The notes below the pieces were generated by a model. It ran no database searches. It had not been told where the DNA came from and saw only the letters and a list, made by a program, of their open reading frames with translations. The position numbers and the translations under genes were made by a program. Below, piece after piece: positions 54,915 through 64,000 of a DNA stretch of 64,000 nt. Position 1 is the stretch's first letter, and each line of letters begins with the position of its first letter. Source of the stretch: an uncultured Verrucomicrobiae bacterium (GTDB lineage: Bacteria; Verrucomicrobiota; Verrucomicrobiia; Chthoniobacterales; JAFAMB01); NCBI GenBank assembly GCA_963808535.1, contig CAWEGF010000015.1:22526-86525 (forward strand), written 5' to 3'.

Positions 54915-56217
54915 CTACTTCAATGGCGCATCCTTGCTCCCCTTGAGCGCCGCTGGGAGAAAGGGGACTAGCAATAACACGATCGCCGTCGTCCCGGCGT
55001 TCAGCAAAACAAGATTGCTGAATGCCCATTTGTGATCTACCAAGTAGGAACCCACCACATCAGCACCAAAAAGGGCCACGTTCCGGAAGGCGAGGATCAG
55101 GGAATACCCGAGGCCTTCACAACCTTTAGGAGTCGCCCGAGCCGCCAGATCGACCAAAGCGACTTCCGCCAGCCCACCGAAGAGCCCAGTTTGGGATTCG
55201 ATGAACATCGCGCGGTTCCAACTGGAATAGAAAAGATAAAAGAGGGTTCCGCTCGCCGACAATGTTATAGCGATCACCAACAGGGTGCGGATCGAGAAGC
55301 GTTTAATTAATTGGCTGTAGATAATCGCCGCCAGGATGGCAAATCCGCCGTTGAAAACACCGAGATTTCCTATCGCCTGGCTTAGAGAAATGTAGTTCGT
55401 CAGTCTGCTTGTAAAAGAGTGGGGTCACCAATCCGGGTGAGAAATGATACAGGGCGATAAACAGCAGCACCGTCCAAAGCGCTTTAGACCGCAGAATAGT
55501 TTTGATCTGCAAACCCGCGTTTCGGAAAACCGTGGCGCTTTGCTGTGGAGCGACTCGCTGCTCTTTCAGGTAGATGAAGGCGATCGGGAAGATCGCCAGC
55601 GCCAAAACGGCGTTCACGCCAGTCGCCCACATGAATCCGGCGGTTGACAGCAATCCCCCGAGAGGTCCTCGAATCAAGGCGCAAAAATTGAAGACCAACA
55701 TTCGCAAAGCGCTCAAGCGACCAGTGGCGGCCATGCGCTGCCCGGCCTCGACGAGAAAAGCGCCGATCACTGTCGAGCCCATGACCATGAAAAGTTCCAC
55801 CATCATCACCCCGCAAAGTAACGGTCCGTACTGGTGCGGAAGGAAATTCATGCCGAGCCAACTCAAAGCCGTCAGCACCGAACTGCAGAGGAGATAATGT
55901 CGCCGCCGCGTCCCAAACAGTGGAAAGGCGTCCGTGAGAATACCGGCCAAAGGCTTCAAGTACCAAGCCATGCCGGCCCAAAAAAAGAACGCCGCCATCT
56001 GCTCACGAGTGACGTGCACATCGTTCTTCAGCAGGAACTGCAAAGGCAATCTGCCCAGAGCTGACGTCTGGGGCATGGTCGTCGCAAAAATGCCGACAAT
56101 GATGATCAGCGCCAACGGAAGGAGACCTCTATTCCCGACCTCTATGCGACTGCCCGTCGAGATCTCAGTTTCTGCCCATAAGGGCTTACCTGTATCTGGA
56201 GAACCAACAGAATCCAA
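54915..56217 (-). CDS. BT1 (folate/biopterin)-like MFS transporter; frameshift near 55380
   Basis: WYLKPLAGILTDAFPLFGTRRRHYL; LAARATPKGCEG in the C-part. Confidence 0.8.
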
Positions 56218-56229
56218 GAAATGGATTGT

Positions 56230-57648
56230 TCAAGGAAACCGGAGTTGACCCTGATCGGCTGTCGAATGCACTTCGCCGGACCCGGGAGGCGGAAACCCTT
56301 GCGCCGCGTCGTCGATCACCAGGATCCAGTCAAGGTCCTCTCCCTTGAAGGGTGGAGTGACCTCGATCAAGCTGGAGCGCGGGAAAAGTCCCAGATTAAC
56401 GTGACCTCCATCGCGCGGGTTGAACCACCAAAATTGGAACGATTTCCCGGAGAGCGACTGCGGGTTCAGCACGTAAGATCTCGAAGTCGCGCTGTAGATC
56501 ATCCCGTAAGCACCATCCATGCTTCTGGTGGCGTTCATGAATTTGGTTCCTGCGCCCGGAATCCCATTCGGAACGTTCGCAGGAACAATTAGTGAATCGT
56601 CGGGCATCCGAGTCAAGAAGGGGCGACTCTCCAGCAGAGCCCGGGCGTGCCGGATTTGCCAGGCCCCTGGGCTATCGATCGCTTCACGCCAATAGTTGAG
56701 CGGCTTGTTAACTCCCTCGCCGCGGGATGGGGAATGCATCTGCCAAACGCTATGATGCCCGTAGGTGTGACCAAACGCGCCGCTGAAAAGATCCCAGTAC
56801 AAAAACCGACGACAATCGATCGCGCTCGAATACCCGTATTTTGCGGCCTCAAATCCGATCGGATGGTCTTCGTAGATGGGTTCACCATCAATGACCGGTT
56901 TTACTGGAACCCGTGCGTAATCGCTGGCGATCCTCGCCCAGGTCGGTGTCCCATTGAAATGGCCGTCCTGTCGCATATTGAAGTCCAATAGCGGATCGTC
57001 ATTCGGGAAGACGGTGGCTGAAGTCGATATATGCTCGTCGCCACCGCGCGGGTGAAAGGTCATCAGGTGCCGGCCTTGGTCCCCAGCCCGCAAGCCTTCA
57101 CCCAGAGACCGCCAAATCTCGAGTTTTTCCACGTCGTCCACAACCCGATCCCCTCCGAGTATCCAAATGACGTCGGCGTCCCGATACCGCTCGCCCAAAT
57201 ATTCTCCGTAAATTCGAGCGTTCCGGCGATCGAAGATTGATGGGCCGTCGCCGTTGGTCTGCCCGACTTTATCACCCCAGGTTGGTAACATGCCGACGCG
57301 TCAATCCGAGCCGATTGGCCAGGCGGACGATCCAATCCACATGGCGAAAATAAGCCTCGTTCGGAGTTGCCGGATCTTCGTTTACCAGTGGCAAATCACC
57401 GTAAGCATTCGGTTCCCGAATCCCCTGAAATTCAGCCAACACCACGGCCTGAATGACGGTAAACCCTGCTCGACCCGTTTTTGTAAATAGTGCTCTGCCT
57501 CTTCCCGACTTGCCCGGTGGAAGATTTCCCAAGCCGTATCGCCGAACCAATAAAAAGGGGCACCGTTCGATCTGACCAGAAAGCGTCGATTTTCGCTAAC
57601 TCGGAGTTGATCCTGATTTTGAGAGAGGGGCGTTGATGATGAGTTCAC
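56230..57648 (-). CDS. DUF4038 / GH140 (apiosidase-like) glycoside hydrolase; two frameshifts near the 5' end
   Basis: [64 protein letters not shown]. Confidence 0.85.
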
Positions 57649-57654
57649 TGCGGT

Positions 57655-58071
57655 TCAGCAATCCTGCCACGTCCCGGTGCTTCCAGAAACAGCTTCGCGC
57701 AAAAACTGCGAAAAAAGGTTCCCGTCCATCTTGCCTTCGGCGAGATAGAACATGGCTTGCAACAACATTGCCTCATCGAAATCATGATCCACCACGCCGT
57801 TGATCTCCAAAAAGACGAGCGCCGTCACTAGCGCGGTCCGGCAATTTCCATCCTTGAAAGGACTCTTTTCTAAAATCGAACAGGCGTAGGCAGAAGCTTG
57901 CTGGAAAACATCCCCCTCTTGCAAATACGCCACCGTTTGCGGAGCCGTCACGCACGAATCAAGGCTTCCACCCATCCGCGATCCCCGGGTGCCTCCATGT
58001 TCTTCCAAGACGGCGTCATGTAATTCCCGAATCTGCTCCACTGAAAGATAAAGAAAGGGAGACTCGCTCAT
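57655..58071 (-). CDS. Doc/Fic-family toxin homologue with non-canonical motif
   Basis: LSVEQIRELHD..HGG; SPFKDGNCRTA vs canonical HPFxDGNKRTA; FLEING. Confidence 0.8.
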   Translation of the reverse strand: MSESPFLYLSVEQIRELHDAVLEEHGGTRGSRMGGSLDSCVTAPQTVAYLQEGDVFQQASAYACSILEKSPFKDGNCRTALVTALVFLEINGVVDHDFDEAMLLQAMFYLAEGKMDGNLFSQFLREAVSGSTGTWQDC

Positions 58072-58256
58072 TTTTCGAGCTTTCGGATGGTTTCCTTGTA
58101 CTTGGCTAAAATCCGTTTCGCCGATCGCCGGAAAAGCTTTTCGGATGCGAAGCCTGGCGAGGCCTTGATTTCCACCGGCCCGTCTTTCGAACGTCCAAAG
58201 AGTTTTCCAATCAGTGCCACCAATTCCAGAATTCTCTTAGAATCGTGATCTTTCAA
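58068..58256 (-). CDS. Putative cognate antitoxin (62 aa)
   Basis: 4-bp overlap with the doc-like gene; C-terminal ILAKYKETIRKLEK resembles the end of Doc-partner antitoxins. Confidence 0.55.
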   Translation of the reverse strand: MKDHDSKRILELVALIGKLFGRSKDGPVEIKASPGFASEKLFRRSAKRILAKYKETIRKLEK

Positions 58257-60183: not shown

Positions 60184-61369
60184 TTATCTCCCCATGGCCT
60201 GCGCCTCAACTCCATGCCCGCTCAGGCTCGCCTCAAGATCGTTTAGGACGATATCCAAAGGTAGTTTGACGCTGTACCGGCAAAACATTGTTTCGGCTGT
60301 CGCCAGGCTCCCATTCTCATAATACTTATTCGCTGGAGCTCCGCCCCCGCAATACCCGTAGTATGCGCAAGAGTCTTGGCAGAGTTTTATTCCGGTCTGC
60401 AAATCCGCAAAAACTGAGCGAAATTTCGGGCTCTCTACCGCATCCACAAAGTCGTCGGTAAGAATATTGCCGAAACTGAAAGTTCCATAAGGAGACAAGT
60501 TCATCCCCAGGAGTTCAGGAGAATAGGTAGAATAGTTTCCGTCGCAGTCAACGTTCAGAATGCCAAAAGGACGCACCTGTTCGTTGAAGTGCGGAAAGTC
60601 AAAGTGGCGCAAAGATTTCCGGCTCTGAATTTTTCCCAGAGCCGCGTCGAATTCTCGAATCCTCATCCGGCCTCCATCGGATTTTTGCAGTCGAAAAATC
60701 GTCATCATAAAGGCTTCGACGCTTTCGGCCATTTGGCTGGAGGAGGTCAGCGACGACTTTGCGTTTTCGCCTTCAATCTCCTCGATGTTAAAACCGAGCT
60801 GAGAAACTTCGAGGTCGTAGAAGAAGTGATAAATATCCTCCGCGCGCCCGAGGGCCTGCTGGGTGATCACGCTAATCACGTGGAACGGGATATCATGAGT
60901 CTTCAACAGGCGGAGTCCCTCCATCGCCGCCTGGTGCGAACCGCGGCCCGATCGGGTTTTTCGGTGTGCGTCGTGAATATCGGCCGGGCCGTCGATGCTC
61001 AATCCGATCGACACCTCTTGATCTCGAAGAAACTTGCACCATCGCTCATTTATCAAGGTCCCGTTGGACTGCATACAATGGCGAACGACCGCTCCGGCGG
61101 GCGCTTTCCGCCGGATCTCGGTCAAACGCCATCTCGTAATAAGAGATCGGCACCGCCAATGGCTCTCCGGCATGCCAGATCACCGTTAGCGGACCCGGAA
61201 TCAACTCGGCCGCGAAGATTTTCTCAATCGTCGCGCCTACTATCTCTAAAGGCATCCGTTTCTTGGAAGCGCGATTCGGGAGATAGCAATAGTCACAGTT
61301 AATGTTACAAAACGGTGATGGCTGAAGAACCAGCAAGCTGATCCACGGACGGCGCGGATCATCATCCAT
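60184..61369 (-). CDS. grrM: Cyclophane-forming radical SAM/SPASM peptide maturase (GrrM/OscB type); single extra base at 61120-61121
   Basis: LQPSPFCNINCDYCYLP, WHAGEPL, QSNGTL, SIDGP, STYSPELLG, C..SCAYYGYCGGGAPANKYYENG..ETMFC; deleting one G restores a 394-aa ORF (..EMAFDEIRR..). Confidence 0.9.
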
Positions 61370-61474
61370 TATCCAACGGTCGATCCAAAAGAGGATCAGT
61401 CTGGTTCATCCAGGATTATCTGTGGCGTTAAATTGGTCCGGAGACTAGCACCGCCTAGCCAAAGAGGAAGGAGG

Positions 61475-61879
61475 CTAGAAGTTGCCCCAGTTGTGCCAAT
61501 TATGCCAGTTGTGCCAATTGTGCCAGCCACCGTTACCCCAACCACCGTTGCCCCAGCCGGGATGCCAGTTGTGCCAACCATACCCGGGATGCCAATTGTG
61601 CCAATTTCCCCACCACATTGGCTGGACGCTATCCGGCGCAGTGTTGCCTGGGCTGACTTCTGTTCCTGGACCTTGACCGAGTTGCTCCTGAATCTTTTGA
61701 ACTCGAATCTCCAGTTGTTCGGCTCCTTCCGCTTTGGCAGAAGCTGAATTGGTCGCGGCAGCATCCCCGACGGCCGCCGAGCCAAGCATCAGCCCGCTCG
61801 TCAGTGCAAAGAGAGCACCAAGCGATTTGGCGAGCGAGCGTTCATTGGGTCGCTTTGAGTTATCTGATCCTGAGGTCAT
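61475..61879 (-). CDS. grrA: GrrA/OscA-type Trp/Gly/Asn-rich RiPP precursor
   Basis: Hydrophobic N-region, LEIRVQKIQEQL leader helix, core WWGNWHN..WGNGGWGNGG(WHN)4WGNF; directly upstream of the rSAM gene. Confidence 0.88.
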   Translation of the reverse strand: MTSGSDNSKRPNERSLAKSLGALFALTSGLMLGSAAVGDAAATNSASAKAEGAEQLEIRVQKIQEQLGQGPGTEVSPGNTAPDSVQPMWWGNWHNWHPGYGWHNWHPGWGNGGWGNGGWHNWHNWHNWHNWGNF

Positions 61880-61911
61880 AAGAACACTTTCTTTTTTGGG
61901 ATGAGGTAAAA

Positions 61912-62487
61912 TTAGAGATCGTTCGCTGCGTCGCTAGTCAGCTTTTCCCAGTAGGCTTCCACTTGGGAGCCGAGTTGATTATCGCGGATAAATAAGCTCC
62001 CCTCCTCGGTCTTCGGGTTGACGGTGAAGAAAGCTTCAGCCGCTTTTCCGAGCCAGGACTTGTCCAGATCATCTTTGGCGTCAGGTCGTTCGGCTCCCTG
62101 GCCGAAAGCCACCTGCGCCACCCTCAACAAGCCGAGGGTGCTATCTCGATCCTGAGAGTTCAGCGAAATGGCAAAAAACTTGTCTTGGAAAAAGTGATAA
62201 ATGATTGATTCGAGCTTTACCGGTCCAAGTTGGAGGTTTTCGTCCTTCTTGACATACAGTTTTAAATCTCCCTGATCTTTGTCGAGAGTAAGTCCTTGGA
62301 ATTCCGAAAACGGGGTTCCAAATTTTTGACCGCGAAACCCGTTCGTCGTGTCGAGTTTCGTGGAGTGTTCAGCAGGCGGCGCCTGCTTATTCGATTCCTT
62401 CGCTGAAGAATCGTAGGTGCCCACTGCCGCAATCGACGAGGCGCAAAGCGCCAAGCGGGCATAATGCAAGAGTCGGCTTTTGGACAT
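61912..62487 (-). CDS. Exported hypothetical protein
   Basis: Likely ATG at 62487 with signal peptide; ends 32 bp before the precursor ATG. Confidence 0.75.
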   Translation of the reverse strand: MSKSRLLHYARLALCASSIAAVGTYDSSAKESNKQAPPAEHSTKLDTTNGFRGQKFGTPFSEFQGLTLDKDQGDLKLYVKKDENLQLGPVKLESIIYHFFQDKFFAISLNSQDRDSTLGLLRVAQVAFGQGAERPDAKDDLDKSWLGKAAEAFFTVNPKTEEGSLFIRDNQLGSQVEAYWEKLTSDAANDL

Positions 62488-62729: not shown

Positions 62730-62976
62730 GCATGCCCCGGAGGGGCTACAGAACTCAGCCCAGGGTTAAGCCCAGGGTTTCAACCCTGGGATCCGTCAAG
62801 ATATCGCTTCGCCCTGCAGGGGCGACAGGGATGCCAGATGAATTTTCGCCTCCATTGTTGCCCAAAATAACGGTGTTAGTAGTTCTATCTGGCGCCCTTT
62901 CAGGGCGCTTCGCTTTGGGGTGGTCGGTCCCAGGGTTGAAACCCTGGGCTGAGTTCTGTAGCCCCTGCGGGGCATG
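62730..62976. mobile_element. Family-A REPIN-like inverted-repeat element
   Basis: gcatgccccggaggggctacagaactcagcccaggg at left; ccctgggctgagttctgtagcccctgcggggcatgc at right. Confidence 0.85.
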
Positions 62977-63127
62977 CCCTCCGGGCGGTAGCCGATCCTG
63001 GTTTTGCCGCTGGTTAGCTAGCTACTTTTACCGCGTCTCGACCCGGCGTTCGCACGCCAACGAAAAGCTTGTTATTTTGCCGTCAAGCTCACACTCCACC
63101 ACTCCACCACTCCACCACTCCCGCCGC

Positions 63128-64000
63128 ATGTCCTCTTCGAAAATATCTCGTCGCGATTTTGTTTTGCAGGCCGCTCTTCTGTCAGGCGGATTAGTCAGTG
63201 CTGGTCTGCGCTCAGTGCAGGCTTCAGAAGCACCGAATGAGGGCCAGTTAAGAGTTATTTTTGCAACGGATGCTCACTTGATGGTCGATAACCGGCTTCG
63301 TTCCGCAGACGGCCTTCGCACCGCCCTCTCGGCGATTGAAAGCGTGAAGCCGCGACCGGATCTAATCCTCTTCGGCGGGGACCTCACTCACGAATCCCCG
63401 GAACTCGATTTTCCAGCGGCCGAAGAGCTGATCGATCAATTTCTTGGGATTTGGAAAGATCACACCGATTTGCCAACCTTTTTTACCTTCGGAAACCATG
63501 ATCTGGTGGGCACTAAAAATGCCTCCGTTCAATCGTGATGATCCGAGGTTCGGTAAAGGATTGTACCGGATGCGCTTGGAGCTCGAACGCAATTTTTACG
63601 CCTTTCGAAAAAAAGGTTGGCGATTCATCGTGCTCGATGACGTCCTGCCAGTTCCGGACGGATCTTATGTCGGGGAATTCGTCGATGAACAACTCGCGTT
63701 TTTGCGGACCGAATTGGAGACCGATTCTCAAATGCCGACTCTGATCTGTGGCCATATTCCGTCGGTCTCTGTTCTCCCCAATCTGGGCGTTTGCGGCCAG
63801 ACCAAGACTAAGGGAGCGGAGATTGAAACTCCAGATTCTCTTTTAGCGCACAACGCCTCGGATCTGCGCCGTGTCTGGATGGAGACTAAGGCGAACGTAA
63901 AACTGGTTCTCGCCGGTCATCTGCATCATTTGGAGCAGATTCAAATTGATGGCGTTTCTTATATCACCGGAGGCGCGATTTGCGGCAACTGGTGGAAGGG
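63128..64000 (+). CDS. Tat-exported calcineurin-like metallophosphoesterase; frameshift near 63530; runs off window
   Basis: SRRDFV twin-Arg signal; TDAH, GGDL, GNHD, later GHIP and GHLH. Confidence 0.88.

Follow-up and report, generated by a model that had tools for sequence, protein, structure and literature searches.

A tryptophan- and histidine-rich repeat from an uncultured Verrucomicrobiae bacterium as the probable core of a GrrA/OscA1-family cyclophane precursor

The subject of this analysis is the minus-strand stretch at positions 61475-61615 of the window (the whole 64,000-nucleotide stretch of DNA that was analysed, from an uncultured Verrucomicrobiae bacterium). It encodes the tryptophan- and histidine-rich C-terminus of a small open reading frame (ORF), grrA, which belongs to a cassette of three minus-strand genes in the order companion, grrA, grrM. 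The features of the cassette, in window coordinates, are as follows.

61912-62487, minus strand: companion gene, encoding an exported-looking protein of 191 amino acids (aa) with no named family; placed by its conserved position upstream of grrA.
61475-61879, minus strand: grrA, a 134-aa GrrA/OscA1-family precursor ORF (stop codon included); assigned from its translation, the NCBIfam model TIGR04260 and homologues.
61736-61879, minus strand: GrrA residues 1-48, a signal-peptide-like N-terminus with a basic n-region, a hydrophobic segment at about residues 19-38 and small-x-small sites that include A46-S47-A48; judged from composition and conservation.
61670-61735, minus strand: GrrA residues 49-70, a conserved amphipathic helix, LEIRVQKIQEQL; from an AlphaFold2 helix at residues 48-68 and conservation.
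61478-61615, minus strand: core of GrrA, residues 89-134, with ten W-x-N motifs (six WHN and four WGN) and two WHP; from motif counts.
61487-61525, unstranded: 9-bp tandem repeat encoding the WHN run; from Tandem Repeats Finder (period 9, 4.3 copies, 83% matches).
60184-61369, minus strand: grrM, a GrrM/OscB-type radical S-adenosylmethionine (SAM)/SPASM maturase, split into the ORFs 61046-61369 and 60184-61173; assigned with TIGR04261.

We hold with good confidence that this stretch encodes the core of a triceptide-class precursor of the GrrA/OscA1 family, stapled by a GrrM/OscB-type enzyme and then exported. The composition of the core is the first line of evidence. The stop codon of grrA occupies 61475-61477 of the minus strand, and the core consists of the 46 C-terminal residues of the 134-aa ORF, with 13 Trp, 11 Gly, 10 Asn, 8 His, 2 Pro, 1 Tyr and 1 Phe. 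The initial annotation had counted 13 Trp, 8 His, ten W-x-N, six WHN, four WGN and two WHP in 46 residues, and these figures are exact on translation. It had also described the last five W-x-N motifs as contiguous, lacking any Gly spacer, and the underlying DNA as 9-bp tandem units with synonymous variation. Both descriptions are borne out: the closing five motifs lie back-to-back at core offsets 30, 33, 36, 39 and 42, Tandem Repeats Finder recovers the repeat, and the minus strand reads tggcacaat, tggcacaac, tggcataat, tggcacaac and tggggcaac, with all differences between WHN units synonymous. Against a background taken from the stop-free stretches of at least 200 aa in the whole 4.16-Mb genome (1.41% Trp and 2.30% His), the probability of at least 13 Trp in 46 residues is 5.5e-14, and that of at least 8 His is 9.5e-6. 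Moreover, a six-frame scan of the same genome identified the core, with ten W-x-[ND], as the sole stop-free span of up to 46 residues that exceeds four such motifs—the runners-up have four. The core is not an assembly quirk, since contigs from two other runs span it gap-free, one from run X1 over 61466-61627 (1 differing letter) and one from run X3 over 61466-61886 (8 differing letters).

Plus-strand ORFs of 104 and 64 aa are also open across the repeat, which could in principle be a DNA-level feature or part of an opposite-strand ORF with no coding role on the minus strand. This explanation carries practically no weight and is refuted by four observations: the minus-strand frame matches a curated family model, its leader and core are conserved in hundreds of homologues, variation in the core is synonymous only (ratio of non-synonymous to synonymous differences, pN/pS, of 0.041), and the gene for the cognate enzyme comes next after this frame.

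The family assignment of the precursor rests on TIGR04260, which NCBIfam names 'GrrA/OscA1 family cyclophane-containing rSAM-modified RiPP' (rSAM, radical SAM; RiPP, ribosomally synthesized peptide with post-translational modifications). The window copy scored 40.1 bits against a cut-off of 31, with residues 28-128 aligned to positions 10-110 of the 118-position profile, and the grrA orthologue at the relative locus L020 obtained the same score as the window copy. Searching the genome of origin with this model returned one copy only, at 39.7 bits. The hallmark of the family, a Gly-rich C-terminal array of aromatic-x-Asn/Asp motifs, is present in grrA, with ten W-x-N and 11 Gly in 46 residues. 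In addition, a word-based search gave 443 grrA homologues at E<=0.001, many of which are named at source as 'rSAM-associated Gly-rich repeat protein' or 'GrrA/OscA1 family...', and a profile search of 1.84 billion cluster representatives gave 604 matches at the same threshold. One database homologue (P0049, 137 aa) has a normal leader followed by a core in another frame (GTTGIRVGAGTTG); this frame equals the alternative minus-strand frame of the window at 61396-61785, and the entry is a frameshifted or miscalled orthologue.

The distribution of the cassette is patchy, which suggests horizontal spread. Within the window's own family, 11 of 36 genomes carry grrA, as against none of 24 taken from the order's other families, and we detected no GrrM at E<=1e-60 in 300 other sampled genomes of the phylum. 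With an alignment of nine sequences, 43 related loci were found which, going by the taxa named in their records, fall into Verrucomicrobiae, Chthoniobacterales, Terrimicrobiaceae and Spartobacteria metagenome-assembled genomes (MAGs), Alphaproteobacteria (Rhodospirillales, Acetobacteraceae, Rhodopila, Reyranella and Stellaceae), and single MAGs named Steroidobacteraceae and Solirubrobacterales. A GrrM sequence follows the precursor in 41 of the 43 loci, the exceptions being a contig edge and a decayed locus, L032. In this Verrucomicrobiae MAG (L032:4990-5360), a WHN/WGN core can still be made out, stops interrupt the leader, and a 30-aa C-terminal scrap of GrrM lies inverted over the decayed precursor. 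In two alphaproteobacterial loci (L049 and L050), GrrM starts about 500-570 bases past the end of the precursor, farther than in other loci, and in the former the intervening DNA includes an additional ORF (L049:5050-5883; about 278 aa) that matches no Pfam family. Several proteobacterial loci also carry family-less ORFs just after GrrM, which may be companions particular to that clade.

To place the core within its family, two samples were compared, both retrieved with the window sequence or a profile: sample A comprised 157 distinct precursors with at least three W-x-[ND] motifs, and sample B comprised 150 representatives of clusters at 50% identity. The ten W-x-N of the window peptide are set against a median of nine (maximum 12) in sample A and of eight (maximum 14) in sample B. 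Its six WHN compare with a median of four and a maximum of seven among the 157 precursors, and its longest back-to-back run of five with a median of three and a maximum of five; several of the 150 representatives have longer uninterrupted W-x-N arrays than the window. At least one WHN or WHD was present in 93 of these representatives and absent from 57, and eight had six or more. The middle residue of the motif was His in 643, Gly in 544 and Arg in 155 of 1396 cases in sample A, and Gly in 416, His in 274, Arg in 264 and Asn in 121 of 1277 in sample B. The window peptide is thereby placed at the dense, His-rich end of its clade and is not a family outlier. The core had been singled out as very dense: the density is real but unexceptional for the family. 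Both density and His content are typical of the clade, and the peptide is an ordinary member of a catalogued, chemically characterised family.

The same relatives reveal which residues are held in place. Across 30 diverse relatives, W90, N92, W114, N116, W119 and W125 are invariant, and the other Trp and Asn of the motifs are near-invariant. Only two His are near-fixed, namely H120 (29 of 30) and H123 (26 of 30), while at the remaining positions His is found in 19 (H94), 18 (H97), 19 (H103), 13 (H106) and 21 (H126) of the relatives, with Gly or Arg in the rest. Among 10 close orthologues, six of the eight His positions are unchanging, H103 is replaced by Arg in four, and the eighth His occurs only in the three orthologues that have a fourth WHN unit. 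Conservation of His in orthologues, which the initial annotation had named as a check on its proposal, thus stands for the close orthologues and, among the diverse relatives, does not extend beyond H120 and H123. The comparison of WHN copy number that it had likewise proposed revealed variation, with four units in three of the 10 orthologues and three units in the other seven. Over the 45 pairs of these orthologues, the core gave a pN of 0.031, a pS of 0.75 and a ratio of 0.041, and the leader a pN of 0.21, a pS of 0.56 and a ratio of 0.375. The core is accordingly read as protein and is tightly constrained. This pattern of constraint fits Trp and Asn acting as the reacting pair, with a middle residue that is freer and yet selected.

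These data bear directly on the proposal that the stapled WHN run is a binding element for Cu, Ni or Zn, with one imidazole presented per ring. The eight His in 46 residues, the near-fixation of H120 and H123, the six unchanging positions in close orthologues and the strong purifying selection on the core would all suit such a role. On the other hand, H94, H97, H103, H106 and H126 alternate with Gly and Arg in the 30 relatives, H103 is Arg in 4 of the 10 close orthologues, Gly outnumbers His as the middle residue in sample B, and 57 of its 150 members carry no WHN or WHD at all. Furthermore, no dedicated metal-homeostasis gene, as judged from family names, was found among the 104 flanking ORFs of 18 loci. 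The exchange of His for Arg or Gly at most positions, together with the many members that have no His, argues against His as an obligatory ligand set; an exchange between His and Arg is easier to reconcile with a cationic or hydrogen-bonding function than with strict ligation of a metal. We therefore regard a metal-binding WHN run as improbable. Metal binding by the core is neither supported nor refuted here.

Upstream of the core, the N-terminus of GrrA looks like a signal peptide, judging from composition and conservation. Its Kyte-Doolittle maximum (window of 15) is 1.76 at residues 23-37, preceded by four Lys or Arg. An AlphaFold2 model of the precursor placed low-confidence helices at residues 18-32 and 48-68 and none in the core, with a mean predicted local distance difference test (pLDDT) value of 51.1. 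The layout of the leader, including a conserved LExRV helix, is common to all 30 aligned relatives; R59 is kept in at least 90% of them, and L56, E57, R59 and Q61 are invariant in nine close relatives. We infer that the helix at residues 49-70 is a putative recognition element for the maturase.

The alternative to an exported product is a conventional small RiPP, in which an unlinked protease cuts near Q86-P87-M88 and releases a polycyclic antibiotic or signal of about 46 residues. Trp-rich cationic peptides are frequently membrane-active, and conservation is moderate immediately ahead of the core (Met, Phe or Ala at position 88, then W89-W90). Additionally, PMC12912966 states that all characterised triceptides undergo cleavage ahead of the first cyclophane motif. 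However, neither the cassette nor its flanks show a recurring protease, transporter or peptide exporter among the 104 flanking ORFs of the 18 loci, the precursor has an export-signal-like N-terminus of its own, and its sole constant partner is the exported companion. A small released peptide consequently seems quite unlikely to us. The earlier suggestion that the product is not a typical small antibiotic fits the same three features, and these—the signal-peptide-like N-terminus, the exported companion and the absence of a recurring protease or transporter—fit an envelope-associated or secreted product.

The second gene on which the assignment depends is grrM. The relevant model, TIGR04261 ('cyclophane-forming radical SAM/SPASM peptide maturase GrrM/OscB' in NCBIfam; cut-off 310), matched the two pieces of the window gene with 89.7 bits (profile 1-70) and 347.8 bits (profile 81-362), and the intact orthologue in L020 with 444.5 bits (profile 1-362 of 363). 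Both the CX3CX2C motif and the SPASM cysteines are present in the two pieces taken together. The split is caused by one extra base near 61119, where the window has gaCCgag and all seven aligned relatives have ga-Cgag; the extra base has no counterpart in the near-identical contigs of the three covering runs (X1, X3 and X15; two DNA libraries and one RNA library). The gene is otherwise undamaged, with nine of nine Cys columns conserved in six intact homologues kept and no further stop. Three more genes within about 9 kb are also split by a change of frame in the window assembly, as listed here.

57385-57648 and 56233-57291: split apiosidase (profile pieces 1-45 and 103-319).
55306-56217 and 54918-55280: split BT1/MFS transporter (profile pieces 7-233 and 340-413).
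62732-63535 and 63444-63998: split metallophosphoesterase.

The metallophosphoesterase is intact in L020 (325 aa), and the window assembly looks prone to indel errors. An indel error is thus likely and preferred to a pseudogene as the explanation of the grrM split, since three nearby genes are split too, one of them intact in L020, and the extra base is absent elsewhere; the runs compared were not shown to be the source sample. If grrM were instead a true frameshift pseudogene, the system would be dead in this strain and any peptide made would stay unmodified. The extra base does split the gene, its site is not a long homopolymer, and another genome (L032) holds this cassette in the form of a decayed remnant. 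Yet the neighbouring splits, the lack of any other defect in grrM, the three other runs that read through the site, and a grrA that is intact and under purifying selection make a dead system very unlikely, and grrM is probably functional in nature. Contigs from soil RNA libraries (X15 and X16; 95-99% identity) overlie parts of grrM and grrA at window positions 60625-61845, which hints, if weakly, at transcription of the cassette in soil.

The third gene, the companion, is open as an ORF to 62574, and its relatives begin near the Met at 62487. It has no Pfam or NCBIfam match, and none in NCBIfam even at E<=10. It lies directly upstream of grrA in nine of the 12 relatives' loci—all nine that have a close WHN-type grrA—and, on a broader view, in 29 of 43 loci, which break down into 28 of 30 verrucomicrobial loci and one named only 'bacterium'. 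Of the two verrucomicrobial loci that lack it, one is the remnant L032 and the other is truncated by the end of its contig; the gene is found in none of the 12 proteobacterial or actinobacterial loci. Signal-like N-termini are present across 24 companion homologues. The AlphaFold2 model displays a confidently folded alpha/beta domain with a mean pLDDT of 82.7. Among PDB structures its fold comes closest to 8wj5_A, a double-wing domain (Z 8.6, root-mean-square deviation 3.6, 111 residues aligned); next are 6xtd_B, an Rhs immunity protein (Z 7.2), and 4ygt_A, a DUF4309 protein (Z 6.2). A complex prediction of companion residues 41-191 with GrrA residues 49-134 scored 0.01 and 0.02 (mark 0.32) and is uninformative either way. 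The companion is not the periplasmic protein GrrP. The best match of the GrrP model TIGR04262 in the genome of origin, at 71.2 bits against a cut-off of 190, lies on another contig, and the cassette has no GrrP. The link of GrrP to the GRRM system derives from the model name (orph_peri_GRRM); we treated it as accessory and not as defining.

Beyond these three genes, the neighbourhood varies from locus to locus across the 18 loci. The RNA fold of the grrA-grrM spacer had a z of -1.12, with no notable hairpin, and a promoter and terminator scan returned sites no more numerous than in shuffled sequences. Elsewhere in the window, a Fic/DOC-family gene of 138 aa (57655-58256, minus strand) is preceded by a 62-aa ORF, the end of which overlaps its start, an arrangement that resembles a toxin-antitoxin pair; in the closest relative, L020, the cassette is likewise flanked by this Fic gene, along with one MEKHLA and one BT1 gene. 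One verrucomicrobial clade (L028, L029, L037 and L059) has the cassette after ftsA-ftsZ, with ftsQ as well in L059, and clpB follows the cassette in three of these four loci (L028, L029 and L037). The genome of origin also contains, outside the window, a second and different cyclophane-type cassette (contig C34:61902-65921, locus L003). Its precursor (L003:264-593, plus strand; 109 aa) combines a twin-arginine-like leader with a Gly-rich core that contains five W-[VI]-N motifs. The precursor is followed by an ORF of about 300 aa that contains Cys and matches no family, and then by a 388-aa radical SAM/SPASM enzyme (L003:1468-2634, plus strand), to which TIGR04261 gives just 80.9 bits, far short of its cut-off of 310.

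The chemistry expected of the core follows from its family. OscB (IPR026357) forms three-residue cyclophanes that join Trp-C7 to Asn/Asp-Cbeta and Phe-C4 to Asn-Cbeta between residues i and i+2, according to the review PMC11002830, which traces this chemistry to Nguyen et al. 2020 Nat Chem. Given ten W-x-N motifs and OscB-type chemistry as set out there, up to ten rings with a loss of 2 Da each (-20 Da) can reasonably be inferred for the window peptide; the initial annotation had arrived at the same number for full modification, and its estimate is sound in view of the GrrA/GrrM family membership.

We propose that the GrrM/OscB-type enzyme would dock on the helix at residues 49-70 in the cytoplasm and form a C-C bond from the indole C7 of Trp to the Cbeta of the Asn at i+2 in up to ten W-x-N motifs. 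Each bond would close a three-residue cyclophane, and the two WHP, which have no Asn, should remain open. Six of the rings would have His in the middle, outside the bond and pointing away from the ring. The N-terminal 48 residues would then serve as a Sec-type signal peptide or a membrane anchor, with stapling coming first and Sec export next, so as to leave a product of about 86 residues outside the cytoplasm, or a membrane-anchored one, near the envelope and together with the exported companion. There would be no trimming followed by pumping out, as expected of a small antibiotic. Its His, Arg or Gly middle positions and fixed indoles would form a polar, partly cationic aromatic strip, for which binding of an envelope or extracellular partner appears the most likely use.

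Several points weigh against this reading of a stapled and exported GrrA product. No cross-link has been reported for this peptide or for any WHN motif in the literature that was found. In this assembly grrM is out of frame and, if that is real, the strain would make an unmodified peptide. AlphaFold2 models the precursor poorly (mean pLDDT 51.1). At about 20 residues, the hydrophobic segment is on the long side for a signal that is cleaved off and could instead anchor the product in the membrane, and the RNA-library contigs may be DNA carry-over. The homologue sets behind the motif statistics were retrieved with the window sequence or a profile and lean towards look-alikes. Moreover, the fold match of the companion is borderline (a Z below 8 denotes a common arrangement), and Foldseek returned no match in the PDB at E<=0.001.

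The chemistry of the family is known; our literature search found no function assigned to any GrrA-type product. A more far-reaching proposal is that this soil verrucomicrobial clade uses triceptide chemistry to make a portion of an exported protein and not a diffusible natural product. Once past Sec, the protein, about 86 residues long, would still have its leader helix and would end in a rigid tail of up to ten rings, each bearing His or Arg. With its dedicated 'double-wing'-like companion it would serve, in the envelope or outside the cell, to bind a metal, an anionic polymer or a surface. We put this forward as speculation that is rather unlikely to hold. In a bolder version, the overlapping H-N-W register may also be cross-linked, which would yield a fused ladder. 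Should a stapled exported protein prove true, radical-SAM 'RiPP' enzymes would also decorate secreted proteins. The clade offers a clean test case: the cassette is short, with three genes, every motif keeps just Trp and Asn constant while His, Gly and Arg replace one another between them, and the export-like signal of the precursor goes with an unnamed exported partner that this lineage always has. Bench work would best be directed at the export signal, at the unnamed companion and at what the middle residue does.

The system can be compared with several known ones. Indolicidin, tritrpticin and the histatins combine Trp with a basic or imidazole-rich composition and are unstapled and eukaryotic; the core is alike in composition but unrelated to them in sequence, so that the comparison serves as a lead only. 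Anaerobic sulfatase-maturating enzymes modify a signal-peptide-bearing substrate in the cytoplasm before export, which is the same order of events as proposed for GrrA and would be an analogy of workflow only. They are related SPASM enzymes (the intact grrM orthologue scores 176.9 bits on TIGR03942, cut-off 349), but they form formylglycine, and on a folded enzyme substrate. XncB/XyeB, MscB/FxsB, YhhB, HaaB and AmcB belong to the same enzyme superfamily and, according to PMC11002830, follow the same i to i+2 logic, although with other motifs (Trp-C6, Tyr-C3 or His-C2) and other third residues. The window grrM also matches the AmcB, YhhB, FxsB and XyeB models, all below their cut-offs, and the best such score of the intact orthologue is 321.2 bits on AmcB against a cut-off of 425.

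The closest counterpart is OscA/OscB, that is, GrrA/GrrM as defined by TIGR04260 and TIGR04261, both of which the window system passes. Like that pair, it has a leader followed by a Gly-rich C-terminal aromatic-x-Asn array and a maturase gene directly downstream, and the bond expected in the window peptide is the Trp-C7 to Asn-Cbeta link described in PMC11002830. It differs in a middle residue that is mostly His (six of ten motifs) and in five motifs that lack a Gly spacer, with the cores compared through the family model and a review only, and also in its host, a soil MAG lineage of the Verrucomicrobiae/Chthoniobacterales type and not a cyanobacterium. Finally, where the GRRM system is catalogued with the periplasmic GrrP (TIGR04262), the window cassette has in its place an unrelated exported protein of about 190 aa, encoded upstream of the precursor.

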